A stretch of 24,000 nt of DNA from Lachnospiraceae bacterium 46-15 (GTDB taxonomy: Bacteria > Bacillota > Clostridia > Lachnospirales > Lachnospiraceae): NCBI GenBank assembly GCA_041223665.1, contig JBCLQO010000009.1, positions 61,595 through 85,594 on the forward strand, read 5' to 3'. Both the position numbers and the translations under genes were made by a program. Each line of letters starts with the position of its first letter. Position 1 is the stretch's first letter. The notes beneath the pieces were generated by a model. The model saw only the letters and a list, made by a program, of their open reading frames with translations, made no database searches and was not told the DNA's origin. This document shows positions 2,469-21,179 of this stretch, piece by piece.

Positions 2469-2483
2469 TCGGACGATTTTACT

Positions 2484-2572: not shown

Positions 2573-3379
2573 ATGTTATTAGAAATCATGCAGCAAAACG
2601 TTTTACTCTACGGAATAGCGGTTCTGGGTATCTGGGGGGTAGCCAGCCAGATTATCCTGCGGATCGTATATGATAAGCTTATCCACGATATGGAAAAACC
2701 GGCGTTTGCCAAGGGGAAATATGTAAAGCATCTGAAACAGAAATACAATGTCTATAAACGGATGCAGGCGGGAGCCGATAATGTGAATACTTTTATTCAG
2801 AAAAGTTTAATGGAATATAAATTTTTAGGTATGAACCTGCATACCTGGAGGCGGATGGGAGGCGCGGTATTTGTGCTGTGTGCAGTTGTGGGGGCCGTGG
2901 GATGGTATTTTGCCGGAACCCTGCAGCTGGCAGAGGAGATAAGGCAGAATTATTTGTGGGCGGTATTGGCTTCAGCGCTTTTAATTGCGGGGGCGTACGG
3001 AGTTACGGATACGGGATATCGGAGAAAGTATCTGGAAACCGGACTCCGAAGCCTGTTTTCCGGCAGCAGCACGCAGACAGTACAGACGGTAGATTTGCCG
3101 GAGCAGCGTACAGAGTCTGCAAAAGAGACAGTGAAAGCGGAGAAAAAGCCTTTCCCAATAAGAGCTTCTGCGGAGAAAAAGAAACGGGGAAAATCTATGG
3201 AGACAAAAGCCCAGAGGGACAAGCGTGAATTAAAAGAAAATCTGGCGAAACTTAAGGAGGGAACTGCGGAGACTGCGGCGGCCGAGGGAAGCCGGAAGAG
3301 GAATACGGAAATTTTACAGCAGATGGACCCGGCAGAACAGGAAAGAGTTATTCGGGAGGTACTGAAAGAATTTCTGTGA
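2573..3379 (+). CDS. Hypothetical membrane protein with a Lys/Glu-rich C-terminal tail
   Basis: ORF 2510..3379. The preferred start is ATG 2573, with GGGGGAAG at 2561-2568 as SD. Hydrophobic segments: LLYGIAVLGIWGVASQIIL, GGAVFVLCAVVGAVGWYFAG and LWAVLASALLIAGAYGV. The C-terminal part of about 100 aa is highly charged (KETVKAEKK...KRELKENLAKLKEG). I recognise no family. Confidence 0.6.
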   Translation: MLLEIMQQNVLLYGIAVLGIWGVASQIILRIVYDKLIHDMEKPAFAKGKYVKHLKQKYNVYKRMQAGADNVNTFIQKSLMEYKFLGMNLHTWRRMGGAVFVLCAVVGAVGWYFAGTLQLAEEIRQNYLWAVLASALLIAGAYGVTDTGYRRKYLETGLRSLFSGSSTQTVQTVDLPEQRTESAKETVKAEKKPFPIRASAEKKKRGKSMETKAQRDKRELKENLAKLKEGTAETAAAEGSRKRNTEILQQMDPAEQERVIREVLKEFL

Positions 3380-3386
3380 TTACGTC

Positions 3387-3415
3387 TTGATAATGTGATA
3401 TAAGTTTGCTAGAAT
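3387..3415 (+). promoter_or_regulatory. Promoter candidate for pgi (TTGATA-17 nt-TGcTAGAAT)
   Basis: TTGATA at 3387-3392 and TAGAAT at 3410-3415, with an upstream TG at 3407-3408. Confidence 0.45.
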
Positions 3416-3479
3416 GAGGGATGAATACAGGCAGATTTTAGGCTGCCGGTAAAAAGAACAAAAAAGAGGAGTGTTTGAA

Positions 3480-4829
3480 ATGGCAGAGAAAATTACATTT
3501 GACTATTCAAAGGCAATAGGTTTTATCGGTGAGAATGAGATAGCGCCGATGGAAAAACTGGTACAGGATGCCAAAGAAGTCCTGGTAAGCAGGACAGGAG
3601 CAGGAAATGATTTCCTGGGATGGATTGATTTGCCTGTAGATTATGATAAAGAAGAGTTTGGCAGGATTCAGAAAGCTGCTGAAAAAATTAAATCGGACAG
3701 TGAGGTGCTGGTGGTAATCGGCATTGGCGGCTCCTATCTGGGAGCAAGGGCAGCAATTGAATTCCTTCGTCACGGCTTTTACAATATGGTTTCGAAAGAA
3801 ATCCGCAAGACGCCGGAAATCTACTTTGTAGGAAACAGCATCAGCAGCACGTATTTAGCACAGCTAATTGATGTCATCGGGGACAGAGATTATTCTGTTA
3901 ATATCATATCAAAGTCGGGAACTACCACGGAACCGGCGATTGCTTTCCGTATCTTCAAGGACATGCTGGAGAAGAAATATGGAAAAGAAGAGGCAGCAAA
4001 GAGAATCTATGCGACTACCGATAAGGCAAGAGGAGCCTTAAAGAATCTGGCGACAGAGGAAGGCTATGAAAGTTTTGTAGTGCCGGACGATGTAGGCGGA
4101 AGATTTTCCGTACTGACCGCAGTAGGGCTTCTTCCAATCGCAGTCAGCGGGGCTGACATCACGAAGCTTATGGAAGGCGCGGCAGCCGGGAGAAAACGTG
4201 CCATGGAAGCTGACTTTGCAGAAAATGACGCATTAAAGTATGCGGCAGTCCGTAACATCCTGCTCAGAAAAGGGAAATTAGTTGAGATATTGGCGAACTA
4301 TGAGCCGAGCCTGCACTATGTATCCGAGTGGTGGAAACAGTTATACGGTGAGTCCGAAGGAAAAGATCAGAAGGGTATTTTCCCTGCATCTGTAGACCTT
4401 ACTACAGACCTTCATTCTATGGGACAGTTCATTCAGGACGGAAGCCGTATTATGTTTGAGACCGTAATGAACGTGGAAAAACCACGGTGTGAACTGGTTA
4501 TCGGTGAGGAGCCGTCAGATTTGGATGGCCTGAATTATCTGGCAGGAAAAACGGTTGATTTTGTAAACAAGAGTGCTATGAACGGAACCATTCTTGCACA
4601 TACGGATGGAAACGTGCCGAACCTGGTCGTAAACATCCCGGAACAGAATGAGTACTATTTAGGTGAGCTGTTCTATTTCTTCGAGTTTGCCTGCGGTGTC
4701 AGCGGATATCTCCTGGGTGTGAATCCGTTTAACCAGCCGGGAGTTGAGAGTTATAAGAGAAATATGTTTGCCTTGCTTGGGAAGCCGGGTTATGAGGCAG
4801 AGAGAGAAGAGCTGTTAAAGAGATTATAG
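3480..4829 (+). CDS. pgi: Glucose-6-phosphate isomerase
   Basis: ORF 3471..4829. ATG 3480 lies 8 nt after AGAGGAG (3465-3471). It is a Firmicute-type PGI of about 450 aa with [37 protein letters not shown] and the EGKD motif region. Confidence 0.95.
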
Positions 4830-4842
4830 GGAAATTGAAAGA

Positions 4843-4872
4843 GGGAGACAGTCCGCAAGGAAACTGTCTCCC
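4843..4872. terminator. Hairpin terminator between convergent pgi and the HD-domain gene
   Basis: Perfect 10-bp stem GGGAGACAGT (4843-4852) / ACTGTCTCCC (4863-4872) with a 10-nt loop. It is followed by TTGTTATGG on the + strand and lies between two convergent stop codons. Confidence 0.6.
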
Positions 4873-4912
4873 TTGTTATGGGGAAGAAAAAAGCCAAGGT
4901 AAAAAATGTAGT

Positions 4913-5524
4913 TCAAAGCAGTTCCTGGCGAAAACTGCTTTCTTCAACACCCGGAAGCAAAGTATAAATAGAACAGCCAATTTTCTTTTCGAATAATTGC
5001 TTTATCTCCAGTATTTTCTTCCACCTATCCACTGTGGCCGGGTGAATGCCATACCGGATAGTTACGTCTACAAATCTTTTTTCTAAAAGGCAAAAGCCTG
5101 TTGGCATAGCCAAAGCGTCACACAGCTGTACTAAGCGGTCATAATCGTCATAAACGGCATTTGCAACAAATTCCTTCATAAACAGGTAATCATCGTCACC
5201 TACATCAAACTTACCAATAGAAGTGTTAATATCCTGTATCATGAACGCATGGGAAATGCATATTTGCGCCGCTTTTTCCCATCCTCGCTCCATGCAATAA
5301 CGATAACCGTCTATCAGGTGTTTTTCTGAACTTACTCCGGCGTAGCGTCCAATGTCGTGCAGCAATCCTAAAACATATGCTTTGTCTGCGGACAGATGTT
5401 TACAGTGGGCGGCTATATTTTGGCACGCTTCTGCTACATAGCGGGAATGAGCTTCCCATGGCCCCGGATTGGATTCAGATGCTTTTTTAAGTGCCTGTTC
5501 TGCAAGTTGTCTGTTTGGTTCCAT
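4913..5524 (-). CDS. HD-domain phosphohydrolase-family protein
   Basis: 203-aa ORF with H...LGLLHDIGRY (HD motif) and a downstream ICISHAF. A strong SD (GGGGGGAGA) precedes the ATG on the minus strand. Confidence 0.8.
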   Translation of the reverse strand: MEPNRQLAEQALKKASESNPGPWEAHSRYVAEACQNIAAHCKHLSADKAYVLGLLHDIGRYAGVSSEKHLIDGYRYCMERGWEKAAQICISHAFMIQDINTSIGKFDVGDDDYLFMKEFVANAVYDDYDRLVQLCDALAMPTGFCLLEKRFVDVTIRYGIHPATVDRWKKILEIKQLFEKKIGCSIYTLLPGVEESSFRQELL

Positions 5525-5631
5525 TTTTTCTCCCCCCTAATATGAAATAATCGGTAAATTTCTTTTCGATTATCATTATAGTGCGGTTTTTACCTTATAT
5601 GCTTATCATACGATGTTGAGTTTATAAATTT

Positions 5632-7007: not shown

Positions 7008-7642
7008 TTATGAAAGGACTGCTTCTAAAAGAGTCTTATATGATAAATAAATATTGCCGTATGTACCTGGTGCTGGTATGTGTGTTTGCGGTTATTTTCG
7101 TGATGTCAGGAAATGAATTTATGATGTTTTATCCGGTGGTGCTTACAGGAATCCTGCCAATGAGCCTGGTTTCCTATGATGAGAGAAGCAAATGGTGCGT
7201 ATATGCAGATGCGTTCCCTTATACTCGAAAGCAGATTGTTTCGGCAAAATATCTGATTACGCTGTTCTATCTGTTGGCAGCAGTTGTTATACTCGCGGCG
7301 GCGGGGGCGGTAAAGAGCAGTCTGTTTCCAGACGGCGGAATGGATATGAAGGGATATCTTTTCAGTATTAGCATGATTCCGGTGGCTGGTCTTTTTATAC
7401 CAAGCATTATGCTGCCCCCAGTGTTTAAGCTGGGCGTTGAGAAAGGGCGTATTGTTTACTATGCCGAGATTTTTGCGGTAGCCTTGATTTTCGGTATTTT
7501 TACGGAGTTCCAGACAGAACTTGCACAGTGGCTTGCGCATTTTGGAAGACTGATAGTACCCATAGCCCTTGCAGGGATGATGTTGCTGTTTGGGATGTCT
7601 TGGATACTGTCTGTGAAGTTTTATGAAAGCCGGGAGTTGTAG
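7004..7642 (+). CDS. ABC-2 type transporter permease (small, about 6 TM)
   Basis: Its start overlaps the ATPase stop (ATGA at 7004-7007), with an alternative ATG at 7010. The protein is highly hydrophobic with multiple TM segments, and the position after GntR + ATPase is typical of ABC-2 permease triads. Confidence 0.7.
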   Translation: MIMKGLLLKESYMINKYCRMYLVLVCVFAVIFVMSGNEFMMFYPVVLTGILPMSLVSYDERSKWCVYADAFPYTRKQIVSAKYLITLFYLLAAVVILAAAGAVKSSLFPDGGMDMKGYLFSISMIPVAGLFIPSIMLPPVFKLGVEKGRIVYYAEIFAVALIFGIFTEFQTELAQWLAHFGRLIVPIALAGMMLLFGMSWILSVKFYESREL

Positions 7643-7728
7643 AAGGTGCAGGCTGTTCATTCCCGCGAGAGATGAGTCAGGCAGCGTATCTGTGCGGATA
7701 TTTTGCGACTGTTGCGAGAGCCTTTATA

Positions 7729-7760
7729 CCCCGCCGCTTGCGGCGGGGTTGTTGACTTTT
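7729..7760 (+). terminator. Intrinsic terminator of the GntR-ABC operon
   Basis: CCCCGCCGC-TT-GCGGCGGGG (7729-7748) followed by TTGTTGACTTTTT. Confidence 0.65.
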
Positions 7761-7780
7761 TCATCGAATTTTGGTATAAG
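7752..7780 (+). promoter_or_regulatory. Promoter candidate for the DUF554 gene (TTGACT-17 nt-TGgTATAAG)
   Basis: TTGACT at 7752-7757 and TATAAG at 7775-7780, with TG at 7772-7773. Confidence 0.45.
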
Positions 7781-7815
7781 TTTCAAGGTAATTACTGAAG
7801 GAATGAGGGAAGAAA

Positions 7816-8532
7816 ATGACAGGGCTTGGGACGTTAATAAATGTAGCGGGTATTCTTTTTGGTGGGTTTGGCGGTATGATTTTCGGGAAACTGATCAGTG
7901 AGAGGTATCAGGATACCCTGATGAAAGCGGTGGGAGTGTGCGTGCTGTTTGTAGGCATTGGGGGCGCCATGGAAAAGATGCTTAAAGTCAGTCAGGATGG
8001 ACTTTCCGGCAGCGGAACGATGATGATGATTGGAAGCTTTGCCATAGGTTCTCTGGCAGGAGAATGGCTGGATATTGAGCGGCGGCTGGAGCAGTTTGGA
8101 GAATGGCTGAAAATAAGGACAGGAAATGGCGGTGACAATTCTTTTGTTAATGGCTTTGTTACTACTTCACTGGTTATCTGCGTGGGTGCAATGGCAATTG
8201 TAGGTGCGATTCAGGACGGCATTTTTGGAGATTATTCCATCCTCGCGTTAAAGGCAGTGCTGGATTTCCTGATTGTATTAGTGATGACGGCGTCCATAGG
8301 AAAGGGCTGTATCTTTGCGGCAATTCCGGTATTTTTGCTTCAGGGGGCAGTCACTCTGTTTGCCAGGATGATAGAGCCGTTTATGACAGAGCAGGCTCTG
8401 GACAACCTGACGCTGACAGGTTCGGTGTTGATTTTCTGTGTAGGGGTGAACCAGATTTGGGGAAAAATGATTAAAGTAGGGAATATGCTGCCAGCCATTC
8501 TGGTAGCGCTGGCATGGGCATTTGCGGCGTGA
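7816..8532 (+). CDS. DUF554-family membrane protein (YdfK/YqgA-like)
   Basis: 238 aa. LINVAGILFGGFGGMIFG..., GEWLDIERRLEQFGEWLK, and FVTTSLVICVGAMAIVGAIQDGIFGDYSILALKAVLDFL...IPVFLLQGAVTLFA match my memory of the DUF554 pattern. Confidence 0.8.
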   Translation: MTGLGTLINVAGILFGGFGGMIFGKLISERYQDTLMKAVGVCVLFVGIGGAMEKMLKVSQDGLSGSGTMMMIGSFAIGSLAGEWLDIERRLEQFGEWLKIRTGNGGDNSFVNGFVTTSLVICVGAMAIVGAIQDGIFGDYSILALKAVLDFLIVLVMTASIGKGCIFAAIPVFLLQGAVTLFARMIEPFMTEQALDNLTLTGSVLIFCVGVNQIWGKMIKVGNMLPAILVALAWAFAA

Positions 8533-8605
8533 TGAATAGCCGTGAAATTTGAGACACTGTAAGGCTTTGAAAAAGATAAAGATAAATTCTACAAAGGTGA
8601 AAAAA

Positions 8606-8636
8606 GTTGCGGTTTGAAAGAGCCGCAGCTTTTTTG
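8606..8636 (+). terminator. Intrinsic terminator after the DUF554 gene
   Basis: GTTGCGG-TTTGAAAGAG-CCGCAGC (7-bp stem including one G-U pair) followed by TTTTTTG. Confidence 0.55.
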
Positions 8637-8737
8637 TTTCCTTGCTCAAGAAAGATGAGGCGCCCGCATACATAAGAAAACTTCTTCCTTGATGAACCTT
8701 TGCAGAAATATTAAGAGTTAAAAAATGTGAAATAAGA

Positions 8738-8767
8738 TTGCAATAGATTATCGGCAAAAGATATGAT
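8738..8767 (+). promoter_or_regulatory. Weak promoter candidate for the two-gene defence cassette (TTGCAA-18 nt-TATGAT)
   Basis: TTGCAA at 8738-8743 and TATGAT at 8762-8767, inside a 300-bp A+T-rich intergenic region. Confidence 0.3.
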
Positions 8768-8832
8768 AAAATGACTTTAAGCTTTATTTAAAAACAAAGA
8801 AAATATTTTTTTGCTACAAACAAACGGAAAGG

Positions 8833-11532
8833 ATGATGAAGATGTCGGAGATTACAATTGTAAAAGGCGAAGAGTTTAAGATATCGGTAAAGAAAGAGAT
8901 TCAGGAAAATGATATTTTTATAAATGAATACAGGCGGGCTGCAGTTATGCTGAATGAGATTGCGGGGGTTTTGAAGGAGGCGAAAAAAGAAGAGGCAGTT
9001 TGTTTATGGAAAGAGAGCGATTTTGAAAATAATATTATTGCATTTTGCGGGGAGCGGGGCGAGGGGAAAAGCAGTGTGATGCTGACCTTCGCCAATGCGG
9101 TGTATGAGGATAAAAACAGGGAAAATGCTATTTTTTTGGAGTGTAAAAATTTAAAGAAGCTGCATTTTGCAGAGCCGATTTTGATAGATCCGTCTTTGTT
9201 TGATGATGTACATAATGTGCTGGATATTGTATTGGCGAAGCTTTTCCGGCGCTTTTGTGTATATTATGAAAATAACAACCAGAGTGTGGGCGAACAGGCA
9301 AGGGAGCGGCTGCTCAATCGATTTCAGACAGTTTACCGTTATGTTTCGCTGATTAATAACCAGAAACAAATGCTGGACGATGAGTTTGATTATGAAGGAA
9401 ATATCAGTAAATTGAAGAAGCTGGGAGAAAGCTCTGCGCTGAAAGAGGAATTGGAAAAACTGGTGAAAGAGTATCTGAAAGTTATGGGCGGATGTGAAAA
9501 AGAGAGCCAGCTTCTGCTTGCAATTGATGATTTGGATTTGTGCAGTGCAAACGCTTACAAAATGACGGAGCAGATTCGGAAATATTTAATCATTCCCCAT
9601 GTATTTATTGTTATAAGTGTGAAGATTGAGCAGCTGGAGCTGTGTATCCGGGAAAAGAATCTGAAAGATTTTCAGGAAATTTATAAAAATAAAGAAGAAA
9701 ATATATATGGGCAGTTAAACAGGGAAGTAGAGGTGATGGCTGAGCGGTATGTGGCAAAGCTGATTCCGAAGAAGAGGCGGATTTATCTTCCGAAGGTACA
9801 GAATTTTGAAGAAGTGCGTATTGTTTATAAAGAAACGCAGGAAGGGGAAAAGCTATGGGATTCTAATGAAAAGAAGGGCTTTATTTGTGCAGTGCTGGAT
9901 TTGATTTATGACAGGACAGGAATGCGCTTTTTGCCGGAAGAGGGCGGGAGCAGCTATCTGCTGCCAAACAACTTGAGAGATATGATTAGCTGGATGGCGG
10001 TAATTGCAGAAATGGAAAATCCGGAAGGCAAGGATGCTGTTTATCTCCAGAATATAAAGAAGTTTGAAAAATATTTTCAGGAATGGACAGAAGATAACCT
10101 AAAGCTATATGACGGACTGGATTTGCAGGATATAGGAAATATGAAGGCGTTTTATTTACATAGGGCGGCACGGTGCATACTGGAAGAAATACGCCAGGAT
10201 ATTGACAGGAAATTTGCGGAACAATCCGAATCATTTATAAAGAATCAGCCGGCTGGTTTTTCACAAATCATGAGTTGTCTTGAGAATTTAAAAAACAGGC
10301 TGGTGGACATGCATAAAGGGGCAGGTATCTGTCAGCTGCGCACGTTGTATACGATAAAGCTGAATAAATTTTTAAGGAGCAGCCGGGGGAATGAAATGGT
10401 AAGGTTTCTGGACGGATATATCTGGGGGAAAGGGTTTTCAGGTTTGATTCCTGCGTATGGGAACACAAAGATCGACCGCTCACGGTTTTCTATAGGAATG
10501 ATCAAGGCTTTTAATAAAATCTTGGAAAAAGTGGATAAAAATGCAGAAGGATTGGAGATTCCTGAGGACGTGAAACGGTATACGTTGTCCAATATTCCGG
10601 GACAGAATCGGGAGTCTTATATAAAAGCGTGGATGCTTCTGGGACTGCTCTCAAACCTGCAAAATGATAAAGGGGAACTCCAATGTTTGGCGGATGGCGC
10701 GCTTATATCGGGAAACAGGCAGCCGTCCAGCTATATTCAAATCAGCCTGGAAAATTATCTGGCAGGTTTATGCAGCCTGGAGTTCATGTATGAAAAGATG
10801 GGGATGAGGCTGCTTGGTATAGAGGATAAAGAATTTCAAGAGGTAACTGCGGTTTTAGCGGATAAAAATCAGGCGGGCATTCAATGCGCAAGAACAATTG
10901 CTTCAAATGTGGATGTGGCGCTGGGAGTCAGGGGCTACTGCATGAAAAACCGGAATTACAAGGAAAGGACAAAAGATGAAACAGAGCGCAGCTGGAGGCT
11001 GGCAGAACTTTTCTTTAAGAATGTGGCGGGCTATATGAAGCAGCAGGGAATGGAGTATAACCCACATGATTTGGATATTTTTTCGGTAGGTACAGAAGAG
11101 GAGGGAATTTGCATCAGTGAATTGTATGCGGAGCTTTTGGATTTGAGTATACAAGATATGGAGTTAAAGAACCAGCAGGAAAAAAGCGAGCAAATAGAGA
11201 AAGCCGTAGCAGAGTTTAGAAGGGATCTGGAGGAAATCCCAGAGAAGTGGAATCCGAAACCAGTCAATGTAGCTGGATGGATAAATAGCACAGTAGCAGA
11301 ATCGGTTAAGAGAAACTTGGAGAATCTGGCCCTTGATGTGAAGAATTACATGTGGGAACATAAAAGACAGCCAGAAGGCTTGGATGTGGAAGGGCTGTGC
11401 AAATTATACGAAAGTGTTATGCAGGGCTATCTGAAAGGGAAAAGGACAGAACTTCCAGAAGAAGTGAAAGAAGAGTATAAAAGGTTTGCAGCAGTTTTGA
11501 ACAGCATGAAAATAAAGACAGATGAGAATTAA
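8833..11532 (+). CDS. rdrA: Large P-loop NTPase with KAP-like Walker A/B spacing; RdrA-like component of a RADAR-type defence pair
   Basis: 899-aa ORF with three in-frame ATGs (8833, 8836, 8842). GGAAAGG at 8826-8832 favours 8842. Walker A is FCGERGEGKSSV (nt 9049-9075). Walker B is QLLLAIDDLDLC (nt 9511-9537), about 150 aa downstream, which is a KAP-type insertion. The remaining roughly 660 aa has no motif I recognise. The ORF is followed 26 nt later by a deaminase ORF. The CDS itself is near certain; the family call rests on architecture, not on a search. Confidence 0.65.
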   Translation: MMKMSEITIVKGEEFKISVKKEIQENDIFINEYRRAAVMLNEIAGVLKEAKKEEAVCLWKESDFENNIIAFCGERGEGKSSVMLTFANAVYEDKNRENAIFLECKNLKKLHFAEPILIDPSLFDDVHNVLDIVLAKLFRRFCVYYENNNQSVGEQARERLLNRFQTVYRYVSLINNQKQMLDDEFDYEGNISKLKKLGESSALKEELEKLVKEYLKVMGGCEKESQLLLAIDDLDLCSANAYKMTEQIRKYLIIPHVFIVISVKIEQLELCIREKNLKDFQEIYKNKEENIYGQLNREVEVMAERYVAKLIPKKRRIYLPKVQNFEEVRIVYKETQEGEKLWDSNEKKGFICAVLDLIYDRTGMRFLPEEGGSSYLLPNNLRDMISWMAVIAEMENPEGKDAVYLQNIKKFEKYFQEWTEDNLKLYDGLDLQDIGNMKAFYLHRAARCILEEIRQDIDRKFAEQSESFIKNQPAGFSQIMSCLENLKNRLVDMHKGAGICQLRTLYTIKLNKFLRSSRGNEMVRFLDGYIWGKGFSGLIPAYGNTKIDRSRFSIGMIKAFNKILEKVDKNAEGLEIPEDVKRYTLSNIPGQNRESYIKAWMLLGLLSNLQNDKGELQCLADGALISGNRQPSSYIQISLENYLAGLCSLEFMYEKMGMRLLGIEDKEFQEVTAVLADKNQAGIQCARTIASNVDVALGVRGYCMKNRNYKERTKDETERSWRLAELFFKNVAGYMKQQGMEYNPHDLDIFSVGTEEEGICISELYAELLDLSIQDMELKNQQEKSEQIEKAVAEFRRDLEEIPEKWNPKPVNVAGWINSTVAESVKRNLENLALDVKNYMWEHKRQPEGLDVEGLCKLYESVMQGYLKGKRTELPEEVKEEYKRFAAVLNSMKIKTDEN

Positions 11533-11558
11533 GACAGCGCACGAAAAGAGGAGCATAT

Positions 11559-14126
11559 ATGGATATCGAAAAAGGGAGCCTGGAGATATTATTTTTGAAA
11601 ATTCCATATAATAAAATTTCAGTCAGGCAATCCATAGGCGGGGGACGGCACGATTATGGGAAAGTTTCGGAAGAATTGTACATGCAGTATGCCCAAAGCG
11701 TTTTTCCGCGCTATTCTGAGGATGAGAGGCAGAATCACTACCTGAAATTAGTCCAGGATATGAAGCAAAATCCGGAAGGGCAGCCGAATGTTTTCCGGTT
11801 TATTATGGGAATTGCAAAGAGGCTGCTCATATATGACGGAAATGAGATTACATGCAAATTTGACGAAATGCTGCGGTGGCGGGAGATATCCTTTCAGTTG
11901 GGGCAGGACTTTTTCGCTTGCGCGTTTCTGGCAGCACATGATTTAGAGTGGGGGTATCAATGCAAAAGCTTTTCGTGGCAGCCAATTATACGCAGCGATG
12001 ACAGCCGGTTACATAATATTTTGGAACAGGGGCTGGCAGAGAACCATTTTCATCTGACAGGTTCTACGAAGGTGTTTGAACTGAACTGGATATGTGTGAT
12101 GAATTTGATTGACGGGAGATGGCATGATTTCAGGAAGATTCCCGGCGCTTTGCAGGTTCATCAGGCGGACAGGGTCAGGAGTGAAGGGAAGCAGGAGGGA
12201 TTTTATGCGGAATGCCAGAGAGCGGCGCTTTACCGGGTTTATTTGTTTGCAGTTCTGAAAGGAAATGAGGGCTTAAAGAAGGTAATTTCAAAAATCATGG
12301 AAAAGGCAGATAGCCATATTCCGATGGAGCTGCTGGTGGGGGAAATCCAGGATGCCATAGTTCTGGCAAAACATGTCTATGGCGCGCGGGTGGAGGACAG
12401 ATATATTTTGGATTATGCGTTTGAGAAAGATATGACAGATTGTAATCAGAGAGAGTATTATCTGCTGGCGGGTGAACGGAGGTTTTTGTATGAATGTTAT
12501 AAGGCGTGTGTTTCTGGGGATTTTGGCGCTTATGAAAAAAATCTGTTTTATGTTTATCTCTCTATCCGTACCCATTTCCGCGGGGAATTGATTCAGGTAA
12601 ACAGACAGGTAGGATTTGAGAATTTCAGCAAGTATCAGGACAGGAAGGAGATTTTTATTGAAGGGCAGAAGGAGTATGAGGATGAGCTGGTTCGGCTGGC
12701 TTTAAATGGAACGTTGAAATGCCAGAATATAGTTTCCCTGGAGGCGCGCATCTGTCCGAAGAAGAGCGCTTTAAAGTTGTATGGCGCCATTAAAAAGAAT
12801 CAGGCAATCGTGAAAGGGAATTCTGACAGAAGTAAGGAGGAGAAAAAACAGTCAGATGAAAAGCAAGCGAAAAAGATCATATATGTATTGCATTTTCCTA
12901 AGCAGAAAGACGAAAAGTTTTCCGTGGGTTTGCCGAGAAACCACAATGTGAGGATGGATACAAAAAGAAAAGCGAGGAGTATTGCGTCGCTGCTGGAAAA
13001 GGGAACAGAGGTAAATGGACAAATCCGGGGAATCGATACGTGTTCCAGTGAAATCCATTGCAGGCCGGAGGTATTTGCCCAGGCATTCCGGTATCTGTTG
13101 GATTTGGAGTTTTCGTGCAGGGAAGGAGTGCATAGGCGGCATGACAGGCATGGATGGAGAACGAAGCTGCACGCTACGTATCATGCAGGGGAAGATTTTT
13201 TGGATATTGCGGACGGGCTGCGGGCGATAGATGAAACCCTGTTGTTTTGCGGTTTAAAAAGGGGAAGCAGGATTGGGCACGGTCTTGCCATGGGAATAAA
13301 TCCGGATGAGTACTATAAATATAAAGGGTATAAGCTGGTCATGCCAAAACAGCTTTTACTGGATGACATTGCCTGGCTGTTAAGTAAAGCGGAAGAGACG
13401 GGCTGTGTCATAGAGAACCGACTGAAGGCAGAGCTTAAAGAAAGATATTGCAGTTTGTATGATGAGATTTACCGGGAACATGTGAGAGGAAAGTTTAAGG
13501 CGTCGGTGGCGGAATATTATCAGAGCTGGAAACTCAGAGGGGATAATCCGCAGGTATATCGGCTGGAGGAACGGGAATTTCTGAAAAGGCTAGAACAAAC
13601 GCCGCTGCTCAGATTTGACAGATATGAGTTCAATGACAGGGTTAGTAACCATATCAGAAAAATAGAATCCTGCAGGGAACTGTATTTTGCCTATCATTAC
13701 CATCAGAAGGTGCGGGAGATTGGAGATGAGAGGATAGAATTAAAGGTAGACCAGCGGTATGAGGCGCTTATATGTCAGATCCAGGATAAAATGATTCAGC
13801 AATTGGTACACAGAGGGATTGGAATCGAAACAAACCCTTCATCAAACTATTTGATAGGAACTATCACAAAATATGAGGAACATCCAATCCTGCGGTTTAA
13901 TTCAAGAAAGCTGAAGCCAGTTCAGCCGAATATGTCCCTGAACGTATCAATTAATACAGACGACCAGGGAGTATTTGACACTTCGCTGGAAAATGAATAT
14001 GCGCTTATGGCGCTGGCATTGAGAAAGGCAAAGGATAAGGACTGTCGGCCGCTGTATGATATTGAGGATATTTATGAATGGATAGATTATGTCCGCAAGA
14101 TGGGATTGGAGCAGATTTTTTCATAA
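11559..14126 (+). CDS. rdrB: Divergent, enlarged adenosine/AMP-deaminase-fold protein; RdrB-like component of a RADAR-type defence pair
   Basis: 855-aa ORF with SD AGAGGAG (11547-11553) 5 nt before ATG 11559. The full amidohydrolase/ADA motif set is present in canonical order: ENHFHLTGS (H163/H165, nt 12045-12053), TYHAGEDF (H542-E545, nt 13182-13193), SRIGHGLAMG (H574), IETNPSSN (aa 756-763) and SINTDDQGVFD (D801/D802, nt 13959-13964). Confidence 0.72.
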   Translation: MDIEKGSLEILFLKIPYNKISVRQSIGGGRHDYGKVSEELYMQYAQSVFPRYSEDERQNHYLKLVQDMKQNPEGQPNVFRFIMGIAKRLLIYDGNEITCKFDEMLRWREISFQLGQDFFACAFLAAHDLEWGYQCKSFSWQPIIRSDDSRLHNILEQGLAENHFHLTGSTKVFELNWICVMNLIDGRWHDFRKIPGALQVHQADRVRSEGKQEGFYAECQRAALYRVYLFAVLKGNEGLKKVISKIMEKADSHIPMELLVGEIQDAIVLAKHVYGARVEDRYILDYAFEKDMTDCNQREYYLLAGERRFLYECYKACVSGDFGAYEKNLFYVYLSIRTHFRGELIQVNRQVGFENFSKYQDRKEIFIEGQKEYEDELVRLALNGTLKCQNIVSLEARICPKKSALKLYGAIKKNQAIVKGNSDRSKEEKKQSDEKQAKKIIYVLHFPKQKDEKFSVGLPRNHNVRMDTKRKARSIASLLEKGTEVNGQIRGIDTCSSEIHCRPEVFAQAFRYLLDLEFSCREGVHRRHDRHGWRTKLHATYHAGEDFLDIADGLRAIDETLLFCGLKRGSRIGHGLAMGINPDEYYKYKGYKLVMPKQLLLDDIAWLLSKAEETGCVIENRLKAELKERYCSLYDEIYREHVRGKFKASVAEYYQSWKLRGDNPQVYRLEEREFLKRLEQTPLLRFDRYEFNDRVSNHIRKIESCRELYFAYHYHQKVREIGDERIELKVDQRYEALICQIQDKMIQQLVHRGIGIETNPSSNYLIGTITKYEEHPILRFNSRKLKPVQPNMSLNVSINTDDQGVFDTSLENEYALMALALRKAKDKDCRPLYDIEDIYEWIDYVRKMGLEQIFS

Positions 14127-14131
14127 AAGTT

Positions 14132-14169
14132 CCCCTGTATTTTCACCATATAAGGAGAAAATACAGGGG
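14132..14169. terminator. Shared hairpin terminator between convergent rdrB-like and vanZ-like genes
   Basis: Perfect 12-bp stem CCCCTGTATTTT (14132-14143) / AAAATACAGGGG (14158-14169) with a 14-nt loop. It fills most of the 49-nt gap between the two stop codons. Confidence 0.55.
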
Positions 14170-14175
14170 ATTATT

Positions 14176-15207
14176 CTACATATCAAAAAACCAGTCTTTT
14201 TCTCTTTTGGCCCGCCTGCGCCTTTTAGGGGGGACCGCCTGCGGCGGCTGTGAAGGGCGCGGCGGCTGCTCATCGATTCCCCAGTCATTTGCCCTCGCGG
14301 GGTCTTGCCAGTCAGGGGAATAGGTTTCATCACGGGGGCTGTCGATGTCGATAGCTTCCTCGTCAAGCCATTCCTCTTCCGGTTCCTGATAAGACCGTTC
14401 CGGCCGCTGCCAGTAATCATCCTGTGTACCACGTGAAGGGGGCGGATAGCTGCTTTGCTGTTGGCGGGGTGGTTCGTAATAGCTGCCTTGCGGGGGATAG
14501 GGCGGTTCACGATAGCTGCCCTGCGGCGCATAAGGTGGTTCATGATAGCTGCCTTGCGGCGGATAAGGCGGCTGCCGATATCCTTCCGGTTCCCGGTAAG
14601 GGGGCGCCGGATATCCTTCCCGGCTGTAAGGCTGACGCGGATACGGTACATCGGAATATTCGCCGTCATAGCCGGTTGTATCTTTGAACCGCTGTTTCTT
14701 TCCGCGCATTTTCCGGTTCCTTTTCGGACGGAAAATGGTTTTTCGTCCCGTCCACCCGATAATGCGTACCAGAAGAATTCCAAAGAAGATTCCTACGCTG
14801 TCGATGCATACATCCTTTGCAGAAGGGCTGCGCCCCGCAACCAGGGACTGGTGATATTCATCCCCGCAGGCAAAAGCCACGCAGATGAAACCCGCCGTCA
14901 GCATCAGCAGAAAACCATGGAGGCCGTATACATATAGTGGAAAAGCCACAGCCACGGCAAGGGCGAAATATTCAGCCATATGTGCCAGTTTCCGTGTGAT
15001 AAAATGGATTTTATCTGCCCACTCTGCTATCTGCCATTCTTCGAGGTTTGCGTCGAAAATGTAGTCGGCCGCCTCTATGATTTTACAGCTGGCTTTGTAG
15101 CTCATCTGTGAGGAAACCTCCCCCGGCTGGGCAGAAAAGGAGAAAATCATATACATAAGCAGCAGTGCCGGGAGAAACGACAATGGCTTTAATAAACTTC
15201 GAATCAT
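14176..15207 (-). CDS. VanZ-like membrane protein with a Pro/Tyr/Gln-rich repetitive cytoplasmic tail
   Basis: ORF 14176..15246. The preferred start is ATG 15207, which lies 8 nt after AAGGAGG. The N-terminal half has VanZ-like motifs (ITRKLAHMAEYFALAVAVAF; CGDEYHQSLVAGRSPSAKDVCIDSVGIFFGILLV). The C-terminal half is low complexity with PPYxPQGSYxE repeats and an acidic, Trp-containing end. Confidence 0.75.
   Translation of the reverse strand: MIRSLLKPLSFLPALLLMYMIFSFSAQPGEVSSQMSYKASCKIIEAADYIFDANLEEWQIAEWADKIHFITRKLAHMAEYFALAVAVAFPLYVYGLHGFLLMLTAGFICVAFACGDEYHQSLVAGRSPSAKDVCIDSVGIFFGILLVRIIGWTGRKTIFRPKRNRKMRGKKQRFKDTTGYDGEYSDVPYPRQPYSREGYPAPPYREPEGYRQPPYPPQGSYHEPPYAPQGSYREPPYPPQGSYYEPPRQQQSSYPPPSRGTQDDYWQRPERSYQEPEEEWLDEEAIDIDSPRDETYSPDWQDPARANDWGIDEQPPRPSQPPQAVPPKRRRRAKREKDWFFDM
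14471..14569. repeat. 3 x 33-bp in-frame tandem repeat inside the vanZ-like gene, with degenerate copies flanking at about 14441-14600
   Basis: Units 14471-14503, 14504-14536 and 14537-14569 (ggttcRYRatagctgccYtgcggSNNataRggY). They encode EPPYPPQGSYY / REPPYAPQGSY / HEPPYPPQGSY-type 11-aa repeats on the minus strand. The repeats also explain the pile-up of spurious ORFs here. Confidence 0.8.
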
Positions 15208-16936: not shown

Positions 16937-16948
16937 GCATAAAAAAAT

Positions 16949-17093
16949 CCGCAGACCGTTCAAGCTTTAGCATCACAGGGCGTGAAACTGCATTAGGTAA
17001 CGCCTTCTACGACGTCACCTGCTGACCTTCTCGTTGTGTCTCCACAGCTTCGCGGCAGCAGTCCATATCCCTGCGGTAGCCTCACCTACCGAA
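16949..17093 (-). promoter_or_regulatory. M-box (ykoK-type) Mg2+ riboswitch aptamer
   Basis: The minus-strand sequence is TTCGGTAGGTGAGGCTACCGCAGGGATATGGACTGCTGCCGCGAAGCTGTGGAGACACAACGAGAAGGTCAGCAGGTGACGTCGTAGAAGGCGTTACCTAATGCAGTTTCACGCCCTGTGATGCTAAAGCTTGAACGGTCTGCGG. It carries the conserved M-box blocks as I recall them from the B. subtilis mgtE leader (GGUGAGGCU, GCUGCUGCC, GGUCA(A/G)CAG, UAAUGCAG, UGCUAAAGCU..ACG). The position upstream of mgtE is the canonical context. Confidence 0.85.
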
Positions 17094-17123
17094 TCAACGA
17101 TATTGTTTATGATATCTATATCT

Positions 17124-17302: not shown

Positions 17303-18691
17303 ATGGCAGATGAGACGAAAATACAGCTTTTTGAGCAGAAGCCTGTCCCGGCGGCGGTTATGAAGCTGGCGGTTCCGACGGTTATCAGCTCCCTGGTGAT
17401 GGTGATTTACAATCTTTCGGATACTTTCTTTGTGGGGATGGTAAACGACCCAATACAGAATGCGGCGGTTACGCTTGCGGCGCCCGTACTGCTGGCATTT
17501 AATGCGGTAAACAATCTGTTTGGGGTGGGAAGCTCCAGTATGATGAGCCGCGCTCTGGGAAAGAAAGATTATGATACGGTTGCCCGCAGCTCGGCTTTTG
17601 GGTTTTACTGTGCCTTGCTGTGCGGGGTTTTGTTCGCGGTGGTTTATACGGCAGGCAGCGGCCTGTTTTTGGAGCTGCTGGGAACAGAGGCGGAGACGGC
17701 AGGGGCAACCGCGGAATACTTAAAGTGGACGGTCAGTTTCGGGGCGGTTCCGGCAATCTTAAATGTGGTGATGGCGTATCTGGTGCGCTCTGAGGGGGCT
17801 ACCCTCCATGCCAGCATCGGCACGATGAGCGGCTGTCTGCTGAATATTGTGCTGGACCCTATTTTTATCCTTCCTTGGGGGCTGAATATGGGAGCGGCAG
17901 GCGCGGGATTTGCGACGTTCCTTTCGAACTGTTTTGCCTGCCTTTATTTCTTTGTGCTTCTGTTTGTAAAGAAGAAAAGTACCAGCGTCTGCATCCGCCC
18001 GTCTATGTTTGGATTCCGGAAGAAGATTCTGCTGGGCGTGTGCGGTGTGGGTATCCCCGCAGCGATACAGAACATCTTGAATGTAACGGGAATGACGATT
18101 CTGAACAATTTTACTTCCGGTTATGGCTCGGACGTGGTGGCGGCGATGGGAATCGCCCAGAAAATCAATATGGTGCCTCTTTATATTGCACTGGGGCTGT
18201 CACAGGGAATTATGCCTCTGGTGAGTTACAATTATGCCAGCGGAAATGGCAGGCGCATGAAGGAGGCGGTGCTGTTTTCTGTGAAAATATCGGCTGTTTT
18301 TATGGCGGCTACCACGCTGGTTTATTATTTGGGGGCGGATTTTTGGACGTCGCTGTTCATGAAAAATGAGGTGATTGTTGCGTATGGAGGCCGTTTCCTG
18401 CAGGGGCTTTCCCTGTCGCTTCCGTTCCTGGCCATTGATTTTCTGGCAGTAGGAGTTTTTCAGGCGTGCGGTATGGGAAGCTGGGCGTTTGTTTTTGCGA
18501 TTTTGCGGAAAATTGTTTTTGAAATTCCGGCGCTGTATATTCTGGACAGGCTGTTTCCGCTCTATGGGCTTACTTATGCCCAATTTACGGCGGAGCTCAT
18601 TTTGTCTGCAGCAGCAGTTCTGGTGCTTGTGCGGATTTTTAAAAGGATGCCCGGCGGCGTTTCGGCAGAGGGAAAAAGGGATTCTGTTTGA
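17303..18691 (+). CDS. MATE-family efflux transporter
   Basis: ORF 17294(GTG)..18691, with the first ATG at 17303. It is a 12-TM-like protein of about 460 aa with a MATE-typical N-terminus (PVPAAVMKLAVPTVISSLVMVIYNLSDTFFVG) and repeated halves. Confidence 0.88.
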   Translation: MADETKIQLFEQKPVPAAVMKLAVPTVISSLVMVIYNLSDTFFVGMVNDPIQNAAVTLAAPVLLAFNAVNNLFGVGSSSMMSRALGKKDYDTVARSSAFGFYCALLCGVLFAVVYTAGSGLFLELLGTEAETAGATAEYLKWTVSFGAVPAILNVVMAYLVRSEGATLHASIGTMSGCLLNIVLDPIFILPWGLNMGAAGAGFATFLSNCFACLYFFVLLFVKKKSTSVCIRPSMFGFRKKILLGVCGVGIPAAIQNILNVTGMTILNNFTSGYGSDVVAAMGIAQKINMVPLYIALGLSQGIMPLVSYNYASGNGRRMKEAVLFSVKISAVFMAATTLVYYLGADFWTSLFMKNEVIVAYGGRFLQGLSLSLPFLAIDFLAVGVFQACGMGSWAFVFAILRKIVFEIPALYILDRLFPLYGLTYAQFTAELILSAAAVLVLVRIFKRMPGGVSAEGKRDSV

Positions 18692-19797
18692 TGGGGGATG
18701 GTATGGGGAATTTATTTTGGAGGAGAAATCCTTATGATATCCAGGGGACGGACGCAGTATTTTTGCAGAAGGTGGTTGAGAATGCGCTGTTCCAGTATGA
18801 TAACTGCGGGGAATACCGCCGATTGCTGGAGCAAAGGGGCTTTACGCGGGAAAGGATTTTGAAGCTGGGAGCGCCGGAGGAGCTGCCGTTTCTGCCAACG
18901 CTGTATTTTAAACATCACAGGCTTTTGTCGGTGCCGGAAAAGAAGCTGAAAATGAAAACCACTTCATCGGGAACCAGCGGGAATAAAAGCATGGTGGGAT
19001 TTGATATGAAAAGCCTCTGGGCGGGGCTTGGGATGGTTCTGGCGATGGGCGGGAGACATAAGCTGTTTTCGGCTGTCCCCAGCCATTATGTAATCCTGGG
19101 ATATGAATATAACCGCCATGAGAGCATGGTGATTATGAAAACCGCATACGGGCAGACCTGGTTTACGCCTGCATTGTCAAAAACTTATGCGCTGGCATAT
19201 AAGAATGGGAAATACATGCTCCAGCTAGAGCGTGTCAAGGAACAGCTGATACGGCTGAGCCGGCAGAGGTTCCCGGTACGGATTTTGGGATTTCCTTTCC
19301 ATGCGGCGTGGCTCCTGAATCAGATGAAAGAAGAAGGAATCCGTTTAAATCTTCCCAAAGGTTCCCGGATGATGTTCGGCGGCGGATGGAAAAAGCATTT
19401 TTCTGAACGGGTGGATAAGGAGACAATGTACCGCCTGGTCTATGAGGTTCTTGGCATTCCGGAAGAAAACTGTCTGGAATTTTTTGGGGCGGCGGAGCAC
19501 CCTATTTTGTACTGCACATGTCCCAGGCATCATTTCCATGTCCCGGTTTATGCCAGGGTGGTAATCCGTGATACAGATACTTATGAACCAGTGCCAAATG
19601 GCACGCCGGGACTGGTGAATCTGATTACACCAATGATGAACAGTGCGCCAGTAATTAGTATTATGACAGATGATTTGGGCATTCTGCACGATGGTTCTGC
19701 ATGTGGCTGCGGGATTCAGACCCCTTATCTGGAAATCCTGGGGAGGGTGGGGATAGAAGATATTACGACCTGCGCAGCGGGTGCAGAGAAACTATAG
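18691..19797 (+). CDS. LuxE-like acyl-protein synthetase / acyl-adenylate-forming enzyme
   Basis: ORF 18688(TTG)..19797. ATG 18691 overlaps the MATE stop (TGATG). It has the adenylation motif KTTSSGTSGNKS and an N-terminal NPY...NC.EYRRLL pattern that I associate with the LuxE family (PF04443) in Clostridia. The family call is from memory. Confidence 0.7.
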   Translation: MGDGMGNLFWRRNPYDIQGTDAVFLQKVVENALFQYDNCGEYRRLLEQRGFTRERILKLGAPEELPFLPTLYFKHHRLLSVPEKKLKMKTTSSGTSGNKSMVGFDMKSLWAGLGMVLAMGGRHKLFSAVPSHYVILGYEYNRHESMVIMKTAYGQTWFTPALSKTYALAYKNGKYMLQLERVKEQLIRLSRQRFPVRILGFPFHAAWLLNQMKEEGIRLNLPKGSRMMFGGGWKKHFSERVDKETMYRLVYEVLGIPEENCLEFFGAAEHPILYCTCPRHHFHVPVYARVVIRDTDTYEPVPNGTPGLVNLITPMMNSAPVISIMTDDLGILHDGSACGCGIQTPYLEILGRVGIEDITTCAAGAEKL

Positions 19798-19832
19798 AAT
19801 ATGGTAAGAAATGCAGCGGGGAGAGGTAGATT

Positions 19833-21179
19833 ATGATTTTATTTCATGGGAAGATTCTGCCTGATAAAGAGTTGGACAGGATTATGGAAGGGCTGCAGGA
19901 TTTCTGCATCCGGGCAGTTGAGGAGCAAAAACTCAGTGCGGCGAAAGTAATAGAAGCCTGTGATGTTCTTTCGGACAGGATTCGAGATGGGGTTTATGAT
20001 GAAATCCTGCAGCCGCTTTTGGAGAAAGGGGTATTTACGGAACATCAGCTGGAAGAGGCAGTTACGTTTTTCTGCCGTGAAAATCTGGAGTACAAATACC
20101 GGACGGAACTGGGGAGCCTATACAGGTATCCTGATGTGCAGAACTCTAGCGGCCGGACGCTGGGCAAAATGGAATGCCAAACAGAAAATCCTGGGGATTT
20201 ACAGCCGCCGGGATATAGCGGCACAGTCAGGCGGCGTCTTATGCCGCTTGGAGTTTTGTTCCATATCGCGGCCGGAAATGCGGAAGGGCTTCCCTTTTAC
20301 AGCGTTATAGAAGGGCTGCTGATGGGAAATGTAAATATTTTAAAGCTGCCCTCTGCGGATGACGGGCTGTCGGCGCTTCTTTTGCAGGAATTGATGAAAA
20401 TTAACCCGGATTTGGTGCCCTATCTAACAGTTTTTGATATTCCGTCTACAAATCTGGAGATGCTTCAAAAGGTTGGGGAAATGGCGGATGCCATCGTAGT
20501 CTGGGGCGGGGATGAGGCCATCCGTGCGGCGAGGAGTCTGGCCGGTGCGGGGACTCAGATAATCAGCTGGGGGCATAAACTGAGCTTTGCGTATGCCGTC
20601 TCGGATGCACCAGAGGAGGAGCTTCGCAGGCTGGCATCTCATATTTGTGTGACGAACCAGCTTCTGTGCAGTTCTTGCCAGGGGATTTTTGCAGATACGG
20701 AGGATATGGAAGCTGTGGAGCTCCTGGGGCGGCGGTTTCTTGCCGTTCTGGAGGAAGAAGGCAGAAGATATCCGCAGCTTCATCTGGGAATCCGCGGGAA
20801 AGTTGGGATTTCCCTTTATAATGAGGAATTGGAAGCTCCGGTTTCCCGACGGAAAATACTCAGGGGGAAAGGCGTCAGCGTGATTTTGGCGCAAGACCAT
20901 ACGCTGGAATTATCCTATATGTTCCGGAACTGCTGGGTAAAGCCCCTGCCTAGAAAAGAAATCGTAAAGGCATTAAAGCCGTATCGGGGTTATCTGCAGA
21001 CCGTAGGGCTTATCTGTCCCAGGACAGACAGGGCGTATCTGGAGGAGCAGCTTTTTAAAGCCGGGGTTGTCCGTATCACAGATGCGGGAGGAATGTCCGA
21101 TATGGTGGCGGGCGGCGGTCATGACGGGGAGTATCCGCTGAGGAGGTACAGCAGGATTGTGGAAGTATATAAACAGTAA
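19833..21179 (+). CDS. LuxC-like acyl-CoA (acyl-protein) reductase, aldehyde-dehydrogenase fold
   Basis: 448 aa. FHIAAGNAEGLPFYSVIEGLLMGNVNILKLPS resembles the LuxC family (PF05893) core. NQLLCSSCQG supplies a candidate nucleophilic Cys. The gene sits immediately after a LuxE-like gene, which is the classic pairing. Confidence 0.68.
   Translation: MILFHGKILPDKELDRIMEGLQDFCIRAVEEQKLSAAKVIEACDVLSDRIRDGVYDEILQPLLEKGVFTEHQLEEAVTFFCRENLEYKYRTELGSLYRYPDVQNSSGRTLGKMECQTENPGDLQPPGYSGTVRRRLMPLGVLFHIAAGNAEGLPFYSVIEGLLMGNVNILKLPSADDGLSALLLQELMKINPDLVPYLTVFDIPSTNLEMLQKVGEMADAIVVWGGDEAIRAARSLAGAGTQIISWGHKLSFAYAVSDAPEEELRRLASHICVTNQLLCSSCQGIFADTEDMEAVELLGRRFLAVLEEEGRRYPQLHLGIRGKVGISLYNEELEAPVSRRKILRGKGVSVILAQDHTLELSYMFRNCWVKPLPRKEIVKALKPYRGYLQTVGLICPRTDRAYLEEQLFKAGVVRITDAGGMSDMVAGGGHDGEYPLRRYSRIVEVYKQ

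Follow-up and report, generated by a model that had tools for sequence, protein, structure and literature searches.

Two adjacent genes on the chromosome of Lachnospiraceae bacterium 46-15 from the mouse gut very probably form a genuine and intact, but divergent, RdrA/RdrB cassette of the RADAR type. They lie in a stretch of 24,000 nucleotides (contig JBCLQO010000009.1, positions 61,595 to 85,594; hereafter the window), and all coordinates refer to this window. The first open reading frame (ORF1; 8833-11532, plus strand) encodes 899 amino acids and the second (ORF2; 11559-14126, plus strand) encodes 855. Both are intact and run in the same direction with a gap of 26 nt, as the original prediction, made from the DNA letters, had described. 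That prediction had taken the pair for a RADAR-type cassette, and we retain this identification because hidden Markov models (HMMs), sequence similarity to RdrB, structure matches, invariant residues and conserved gene pairing agree. NCBI annotates both genes as 'hypothetical protein' (AALA00_06865 for rdrA and AALA00_06870 for rdrB), and nearly all homologs from named sources carry the same label; one relative, P0137, is called 'adenosine deaminase' by the JGI.

Sequence and predicted structure of the two proteins

ORF2 was matched over its full length by the NCBIfam RdrB model (NF041744), with an E-value of 8.2e-55 (amino acids 35-852 against model positions 24-845 of 850), and by two PADLOC RdrB models (4.7e-32 and 1.4e-28). 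In a phmmer search it also matched the Escherichia coli RdrB of the solved structures 8fnv, 8fnw, 8hr7 and 8hrc (3.6e-26). ORF1 was matched by the NCBIfam RdrA model (NF041743) at 2.9e-20 over amino acids 39-385, and by the PADLOC RdrA model at 9.4e-12.

We also modelled both proteins as monomers with AlphaFold2 (AF2), using homolog alignments, and compared the models with the PDB by Foldseek. The ORF2 model (predicted local distance difference test score, pLDDT, 80; predicted template modelling score, pTM, 0.79) showed significant matches to eight RdrB chains only (9.2e-26 to 2.2e-22; template modelling (TM) scores 0.65-0.75). The first match outside RdrB was at 1.5e-2, and no adenosine deaminase (ADA) or AMP deaminase (AMPD) chain was among the significant matches. 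Given that the TM score of 0.65-0.75 to the E. coli RdrB fold spans the full length of the protein, the three RdrB assembly insertions are predicted to be present in ORF2. For the ORF1 model (pLDDT 82, pTM 0.76), the top 20 matches were all RdrA, with E-values of 1e-8 to 1e-14. The best of these was Streptococcus suis RdrA (8fnu; 9.9e-15, TM 0.44/0.49), and the others included E. coli RdrA (8hr8, 8hra, 8hrb, 8hr7, 8fnw and 8fnt); the first non-RdrA fold was BrxC, at 1.9e-2. The alignments with RdrA run through the whole protein (850-970 columns), including the C-terminal helical lobe, a part that RdrA alone possesses. The E-values of the HMM and structure matches of the pair (1e-12 to 1e-55) are far beyond chance. 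Two checks that the original prediction had named, HMM searches and a structural comparison with published RdrA and RdrB, both spoke for its claim.

All motifs assigned earlier to the two proteins were found in their translations (Table 1). The catalytic residues reported for E. coli RdrB, H152, H154, H498, H530 and E501 (Duncan-Lowey et al. 2023, PMC9994260), correspond to H163, H165, H542, H574 and E545 of ORF2, and around the HAGE motif the phmmer alignment pairs TYHAGEDF of ORF2 with TYHVGEDF of E. coli RdrB. The histidine tetrad, E545 and the aspartates D801 and D802 are invariant in 34 RdrB homologs, and the same holds for eight sequences from several phyla, a set that includes the Aliivibrio RdrB named as such by the Prokaryotic Genome Annotation Pipeline (PGAP). 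The Pfam A_deaminase model matches amino acids 718-818 of ORF2 (1.5e-12).

In the Walker A motif of ORF1, G73, R75, G76, G78, K79, S80 and S81 are invariant in 37 RdrA homologs, and the G, R, G, G and K positions also in 31 distant RdrA representatives; the motif aligns with GSRGAGKT of the PGAP-named Aliivibrio RdrA. D232 and D233 of Walker B, whose counterparts are D221 and D222 of E. coli RdrA (PMC9994260), are invariant in the close and the distant homologs alike. Judged only by its position and conservation, R382 is a candidate counterpart of the sensor-2 residue R377 of E. coli RdrA. The spacing of about 150 amino acids between Walker A and Walker B had been likened to that of KAP-type NTPases, and this likeness was not upheld. 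The Pfam KAP_NTPase model (PF07693) scored 13 bits (E = 0.063), below its threshold of 20, so that we rejected ORF1 as a KAP-family P-loop NTPase, and the gap is the site at which the helical 'crown' insertion of RdrA falls (PMC9994260). The ORF1 model has three long helices, at residues 129-147, 154-183 and 193-219 in this interval.

Gene pairing, selection and transcription signals

A scan of a genome collection, queried with one protein, gave five close loci (L001-L005). At all five, rdrA lies directly 5' of rdrB, with identities of 50-88% for RdrA and 67-91% for RdrB. At each of five distant representatives (L007-L011; 21-24% identity), a gene with an A_deaminase domain, coding for 856-918 amino acids, directly follows RdrA, and the rdrA-rdrB order was also found in three gut-metagenome islands (L012-L014) and on two plasmids (L017 and L018). 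In total, the pairing is kept at 13 of 13 related loci (L001-L005, L007-L011 and L012-L014), which span RdrA identities of 21-88%; the two genes do co-occur in other genomes, and the refuting case named beforehand, a lack of such co-occurrence, did not arise. In metagenomes, a profile of the RdrA clade matched 2,499 clusters at 50% identity, 1,459 of them at E <= 1e-30, and 31 diverse RdrA representatives showed 21-33% identity to ORF1. We also scanned viral contigs, which gave two weak loci, and a phage GenBank collection, which gave no match to the RADAR clade of 46-15; these two scans offer no evidence that phages carry the clade.

The closest species genome is that of Hominisplanchenecus murintestinalis DSM 111139 (Clostridia, Lachnospiraceae), in which the syntenic locus is L001. 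The synonymous divergence (dS) from this locus is 0.32 for rdrA and 0.42 for rdrB, and thus no different from that of nearby genes, which extends from 0.12 to 0.54. Therefore, we consider that the cassette was already at this site in the common ancestor with H. murintestinalis. The ratio of nonsynonymous to synonymous divergence (dN/dS) was 0.18 for rdrA and 0.11 for rdrB, compared with 0.016-0.077 for the housekeeping neighbours, which indicates that both genes are under purifying selection, looser than that on the neighbours. A dN/dS above that of housekeeping neighbours is typical of immune genes.

The rdrA gene probably starts at ATG 8842 and encodes 896 amino acids, since the gene caller chose this codon, as does the NCBI record (MEY8427437.1), close homologs have 896 amino acids, and an AGGA at 8830-8833 stands 8 nt 5' of it. 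Residue numbers of RdrA in this text follow the 899-amino-acid frame, which begins at the alternative upstream ATG at 8833. As had been claimed, rdrB has a Shine-Dalgarno sequence of its own, and a terminator scan of the plus strand found no terminator-like site in the gap between the genes; the sole plus-strand candidate within the cassette is a weak one inside rdrA (10595-10613). Upstream, the terminator-like hairpin at the end of the DUF554 gene would be the limit of the cassette's transcription unit. The sigma-70-like promoter candidate that follows it is a consensus match only, such sites being no commoner in the region than in shuffled sequences; homology to L001 resumes at 8731, just 5' of this candidate. 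At the other end, none of 200 shuffles folded as stably as the hairpin downstream of rdrB, which is probably a bidirectional terminator serving rdrB and the VanZ-family gene. On these signals, the promoter-like site near 8740, rdrA, rdrB and the hairpin appear to make up one transcription unit. The GC content is 0.38-0.43 over rdrA, compared with 0.45-0.54 in the flanks.

Table 1. Coordinates of the cassette, its motifs and its putative expression signals in the window
Feature	Position	Strand	Basis
Intrinsic-terminator-like hairpin and T-run, end of DUF554 gene	8600-8635	+	16-pair stem, T-rich tail
Sigma-70-like promoter candidate, TTGCAA-18-TATGAT	8738-8767	+	Consensus match only; about 75 nt 5' of rdrA
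rdrA, RADAR AAA+ ATPase, 896 amino acids	8842-11532	+	HMMs, AF2 model, Foldseek
Walker A / P-loop GERGEGKSS, residues 73-81 (K79)	9049-9075	+	Translation, homolog alignments
Walker B LLLAIDDLD, residues 227-235 (D232, D233)	9511-9537	+	Translation, homolog alignments
R382 codon, candidate sensor-2 arginine	9976-9978	+	Invariant in close and distant homologs
rdrB Shine-Dalgarno sequence, AAAGAGGAG	11545-11553	+	Within the 26-nt gap, 5 nt 5' of the rdrB ATG
rdrB, RADAR adenosine-nucleotide deaminase, 855 amino acids	11559-14126	+	HMMs, phmmer, AF2, Foldseek
HxH (HFH), zinc ligands H163 and H165	12045-12053	+	Aligned to E. coli RdrB H152/H154
HAGE, residues 542-545 (zinc ligand H542, catalytic E545)	13182-13193	+	E. 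coli RdrB H498/E501
H574 codon, fourth histidine, in GHG (residues 573-575)	13278-13280	+	E. coli RdrB H530
ETNPSSN	Residues 757-763 of ORF2	+	Translation
NTDD, residues 799-802 (D801, D802), C-terminal deaminase-fold aspartates	13953-13964	+	Pfam A_deaminase, alignments
Stable hairpin 3' of rdrB, shared with the convergent VanZ-family gene	14131-14170	.	-25 kcal/mol, z = -7.4

Known RADAR systems and rival explanations

RADAR is a two-protein system that is always encoded in tandem, and it is known from 75 genera and seven phyla, with 270 carriers among about 38,000 genomes (PMC9994260). No accessory gene is conserved with the RADAR clade of 46-15 or present in the 24-kb window, so that the bare two-gene core noted in the original prediction is real; the special interest attached to it falls away, because RADAR is defined as a two-protein tandem system. 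The great distance that it had seen between this host and the characterized enterobacterial systems also proved mistaken. For the RADAR of S. suis, a member of the Firmicutes, defence has been shown and the RdrA structure solved, and Table S1 of the same study lists RADAR in Lachnospiraceae bacterium A4 (937 and 903 amino acids) and 3-1, as well as in Clostridium sp. ASF356, C. botulinum and Desulfosporosinus (PMC9994260). Nor does the divergence of the pair count as novelty, since RADAR systems normally differ from one another to this extent, at about 25% identity (published values are 22-25% and 24-28%; PMC9994260). The Clostridia host, the two-gene core and the divergence are the expected state of the RADAR family, and the 46-15 pair adds a member to a kind of RADAR already catalogued in Lachnospiraceae.

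Among the characterized systems, that of S. suis SS993 (8FNU; PMC9994260) resembles that of 46-15 in being a two-gene rdrA-rdrB operon of a Firmicutes host. However, its RdrA is only 13% identical to ORF1 in the structural alignment, with no detectable match at the sequence level, and 46-15, unlike S. suis, belongs to the obligately anaerobic gut Clostridia. The systems of E. coli P0304799.3 and Citrobacter rodentium DBS100 (8FNT/8FNV/8FNW and 8HR7-8HRC) have the same gene order and the same Walker A and B motifs as 46-15, although the structural alignments show identities of about 17% for RdrB and 11-13% for RdrA. ORF2 is some 55 amino acids longer than E. coli RdrB, and the three-fold-interface motif EEE of the latter (595-597) is replaced in ORF2 by KFK, whose lysines are K645 and K647, at a position that is variable in the 46-15 clade.

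Sequence-level matches were obtained with the RADAR of the Aliivibrio salmonicida plasmid pVSAL840 (L017), whose RdrA is 25% identical to ORF1 over 257 amino acids of the ATPase region (E-value 9e-13) and whose RdrB is 27% identical to ORF2 over 400 amino acids of the C-terminal deaminase region (9e-31). These identities are within the published ranges between RADAR systems, and the divergence is therefore ordinary. The Aliivibrio pair passes the NCBIfam equivalog cut-offs and is named by PGAP, whereas the 46-15 pair does neither. Three-gene RADAR variants, which carry a membrane accessory (RdrD/SLATT or Csx27-like), have the same RdrA/RdrB core as 46-15. One of them is on the Aureibacter tunicatorum plasmid pAT1 (L018), the closest plasmid-borne relative (RdrB 34%, RdrA 31%), in which a SLATT gene directly follows rdrB and the RdrB is closer to ORF2 than the enterobacterial RdrBs are. 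This plasmid is a Bacteroidota megaplasmid, and its pair of 962 and 912 amino acids (L018:1996-8322) is also annotated as 'hypothetical protein' in both genes. In relatives at 40% identity, a Csx27-like ORF precedes rdrA, whereas the 46-15 window holds no such gene.

Several observations weigh against the RADAR identification. The scores are far under the NCBIfam equivalog cut-offs (72.3 against 600 bits for RdrA and 186.7 against 800 bits for RdrB). The RdrA HMMs align only to the N-terminal 350 or so amino acids of ORF1, and neither phmmer nor a 37-sequence profile (at E <= 1) found a sequence-level PDB match for it, so that the link between ORF1 and the solved RdrA structures comes from structure prediction only. 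The global TM scores of the ORF1 model to solved RdrA are modest (0.31-0.49), implying that the domain orientation or detail of the predicted structure differs from theirs. In a BLASTP alignment, K264 of ORF1 faces a conserved aspartate of Aliivibrio RdrA, assumed to be the sensor-1 residue (D253 in E. coli); an invariant glutamine, Q267, stands near K264 in the homolog alignment. In addition, the flanks of the cassette in the window are housekeeping genes rather than a defence island, and no further defence genes were found there. We attribute the missed cut-offs to narrow models and not to membership of another family, given that 29 of the 31 diverse RdrA-family representatives match the NCBIfam RdrA model, the best at only 6.1e-35, and that published RADAR systems share just 22-28% identity. 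The narrowness of these models also explains why both genes are annotated as 'hypothetical'.

These points bear on other explanations of the pair. Among the least tenable is that a metabolic adenosine/AMP deaminase merely adjoins a generic KAP/STAND P-loop NTPase. The housekeeping flanks would fit, and Pfam gives only A_deaminase on the C-terminal 100 amino acids of ORF2 and sub-threshold AAA_16/KAP matches on ORF1. However, ORF2 scores 187 bits against RdrB over its full length, compared with 36 bits, against a cut-off of 216, for the best metabolic ADA model, which matches only the C-terminal 80 amino acids or so (742-818); ORF2 was therefore rejected as a metabolic deaminase. Structure matches exclusive to RdrA and RdrB, a gap of 26 nt without a terminator, and a pairing kept down to 21% identity in unrelated contexts also argue against chance neighbours, and we regard this explanation as refuted by the NCBIfam scores, the Foldseek matches and the pairing at distant loci. 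Equally little probability attaches to ORF2 being a Cad1-like, CARF-fused effector of type III CRISPR signalling. Cad1, the CARF-adenosine deaminase of such systems, shares the ADA-fold chemistry and makes inosine triphosphate (ITP) from ATP (PMC12669630), which is its immune output, and the PADLOC CARF_ADA model matches ORF2 at 2e-07. However, Cad1 is activated by cyclic oligoadenylate through its CARF domain and has no RdrA partner, whereas the CARF_ADA match to ORF2 covers only the shared C-terminal deaminase core (amino acids 736-818), on which ground we rejected the CARF-ADA assignment. No CARF domain was matched in ORF2 with PADLOC, Pfam or NCBIfam, no CRISPR-like repeat array lies in the window, and the RdrB matches surpass that to CARF_ADA by 25 orders of magnitude; a Cad1-like role is effectively refuted.

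It is slightly less implausible, but still very unlikely, that the cassette is what is left of a RADAR in decay or after domestication, which has lost its defensive role and serves, for example, in nucleotide-pool regulation. The stable housekeeping site in two related genomes, the flank-like dS that indicates vertical inheritance and the lack of further defence genes in the window would agree with this. On the other hand, neither ORF is broken or lacks any catalytic residue, the dN/dS values of 0.11-0.18 point to purifying selection while exceeding those of the housekeeping neighbours, and homologs occur in mobile and defence contexts. The remaining alternative concerns the mode of action. 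Gao and colleagues are said to have first proposed, in 2020, that RADAR acts by A-to-I RNA editing. Such an action, with RdrA loading RNA and without deamination of free nucleotides, is improbable here, if less so than the other alternatives. Two of the RdrA structures matched by ORF1 (8hra and 8hrb) are titled 'RNA-loading state', and weak A-to-G signatures (about 4%) were reported with C. rodentium RADAR (PMC9994260). However, the site of ORF2 is that of an ADA/AMPD-type TIM barrel with a histidine tetrad and a glutamate, not a cytidine-deaminase-like ADAR site; purified E. coli RdrB converts ATP and dATP while leaving hairpin RNA unedited, and ITP and dITP accumulate massively in vivo (PMC9994260).

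We therefore return to RADAR, and it is highly likely, by analogy with the known systems, that the cassette is a complete and functional two-gene RADAR defence system. Based on homology to the E. coli, C. rodentium and S. suis systems (PMC9994260), we propose that RdrA, an AAA+ ATPase, would form heptameric rings, or perhaps stacked 14-mers, with its divergent alpha-helical C-terminal lobe as the presumed sensor of infection, and that RdrB would form a dodecameric shell, with RdrA rings docking over each deaminase site. Upon infection, RdrA would stimulate RdrB, a zinc deaminase with a histidine tetrad and a catalytic glutamate, and RdrB gated in this way would turn (d)ATP into (d)ITP. The adenine-nucleotide pool would then be poisoned and depleted, which would be toxic and would halt phage replication, that is, abortive infection; the active sites of both proteins would be needed. 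The oligomeric assembly, the (d)ATP substrate, the trigger and the phage phenotype of the 46-15 system would all follow this analogy, and we consider it likely that the output of its clade is the conversion of (d)ATP to (d)ITP.

Genomic surroundings and meaning for the RADAR family

Upstream of the cassette lie an EPSP-synthase-family gene, PGI, an HD-domain gene, a GntR regulator with an ABC transporter, and the DUF554 gene; downstream are VanZ, MgtE, a MATE transporter, LuxE, LuxC, a TPR protein and HflX. The product of the DUF554 gene, a membrane protein of 238 amino acids, was considered as an RdrC/RdrD-like accessory and rejected, because it is a bona fide DUF554 protein (5.5e-71) unrelated to the Csx27-like ORF, a terminator parts its gene from rdrA, and the gene is absent from L001. 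Positions 7626-8731, comprising this gene and its terminator, are missing from L001, which has 223 unrelated bases instead, and the indel ends just 5' of the promoter-like site of rdrA.

Other differences between the two genomes were also seen. The genes for a LuxE-like acyl-protein synthetase and a LuxC-like acyl-CoA reductase (18691-21194) form a clean indel of 2.5 kb and are absent from L001 (between its positions 15158 and 15161). The HD-domain gene fails to align with L001 at its ends and in its flanks (4874-5017 and 5362-5598), and only amino acids 55-171 of its product are matched there, so that, judging from this alignment, one of the two genomes seems to have a truncated or rearranged copy. 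An ORF of 289 amino acids without a Pfam match (2510-3379) is conserved in L001 (94% amino acid identity, dN/dS 0.077) and is therefore taken as a real gene. The VanZ-family gene is unusually divergent from its L001 counterpart (86% amino acid identity, dN/dS 0.15), and its mucin-like C-terminal tail contains a 33-bp tandem repeat (14471-14571; 3.1 copies, 82% matches). An M-box (ykoK leader) magnesium riboswitch lies 5' of the MgtE gene on the minus strand (16941-17100; 100 bits, E-value 1.6e-21).

In other genomes, relatives of the pair stand in mobile and defence contexts. In Dorea sp. 5-2 (L004), three consecutive large serine recombinase genes (771-5127) end 4 nt 5' of rdrA, and a gene for an AAA-ATPase/PD-(D/E)XK protein follows rdrB; judged by these neighbours, a mobile element appears to carry the cassette in that genome. 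McrBC adjoins the RADAR pair in one relative genome, and the gut-metagenome islands (L012-L014) hold SIR2, Macro, NUDIX and AAA_21 genes as well as a second RADAR. These islands (P0058 contigs, such as L012:1-13404) carry tandem RdrA and RdrB pairs, of 875 and 935 and then 938 and 850 amino acids, separated by an ORF of 223-226 amino acids; an ORF of like size at the equivalent position in L019 matches the PADLOC Csx27 model (1.6e-06). The L012 island starts with a protein of 501 amino acids with Pfam Ham1p_like and SIR2_2 domains. Ham1p_like is an ITP/dITP pyrophosphatase family, and it is curious to see an ITPase-like domain next to a system that makes ITP. Two further gut-metagenome loci (P0104; L019:1300-9064 and L021:4676-9064) encode RdrB-like deaminases of 978-1014 amino acids without RdrA upstream, which match the NCBIfam RdrB model at 3e-52 to 6e-52 over model positions 270-820 only. 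The gene 5' of the deaminase in L019 and L020 encodes 1336-1348 amino acids without a PADLOC or NCBIfam match, whereas in L021 a HamA/DUF1837-like ORF of 263 amino acids abuts the deaminase start; a SLATT-like ORF of 211 amino acids comes next in these arrangements. On this gene content, L019-L021 may represent a RADAR-like system whose deaminase works with another partner protein.

The question of whether the Lachnospiraceae clade is a functionally distinct RADAR subtype arises because the C-terminal half of RdrA (about residues 390-896) lacks sequence similarity to any characterized RdrA, the sensor-1 position appears changed, and KFK replaces EEE in RdrB. We consider a distinct subtype possible but rather doubtful. 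If this speculation is true, the clade could sense a different gut-phage trigger from the E. coli and S. suis systems, and could assemble with a different stoichiometry. The gain is modest: an intact RADAR that can be assigned to a named isolate, an anaerobic Lachnospiraceae of the mouse gut, and that leaves the understanding of the RADAR mechanism unchanged. It also exposes an annotation gap, as the curated RdrA and RdrB models cover a narrow clade only. What novelty remains lies in the size of the clade, its lack of annotation, and its uncharacterized trigger and assembly. Given that 2,499 metagenome clusters match the RdrA-clade profile, the published share of less than 1% of genomes may understate the diversity of RADAR-like systems in gut Firmicutes.

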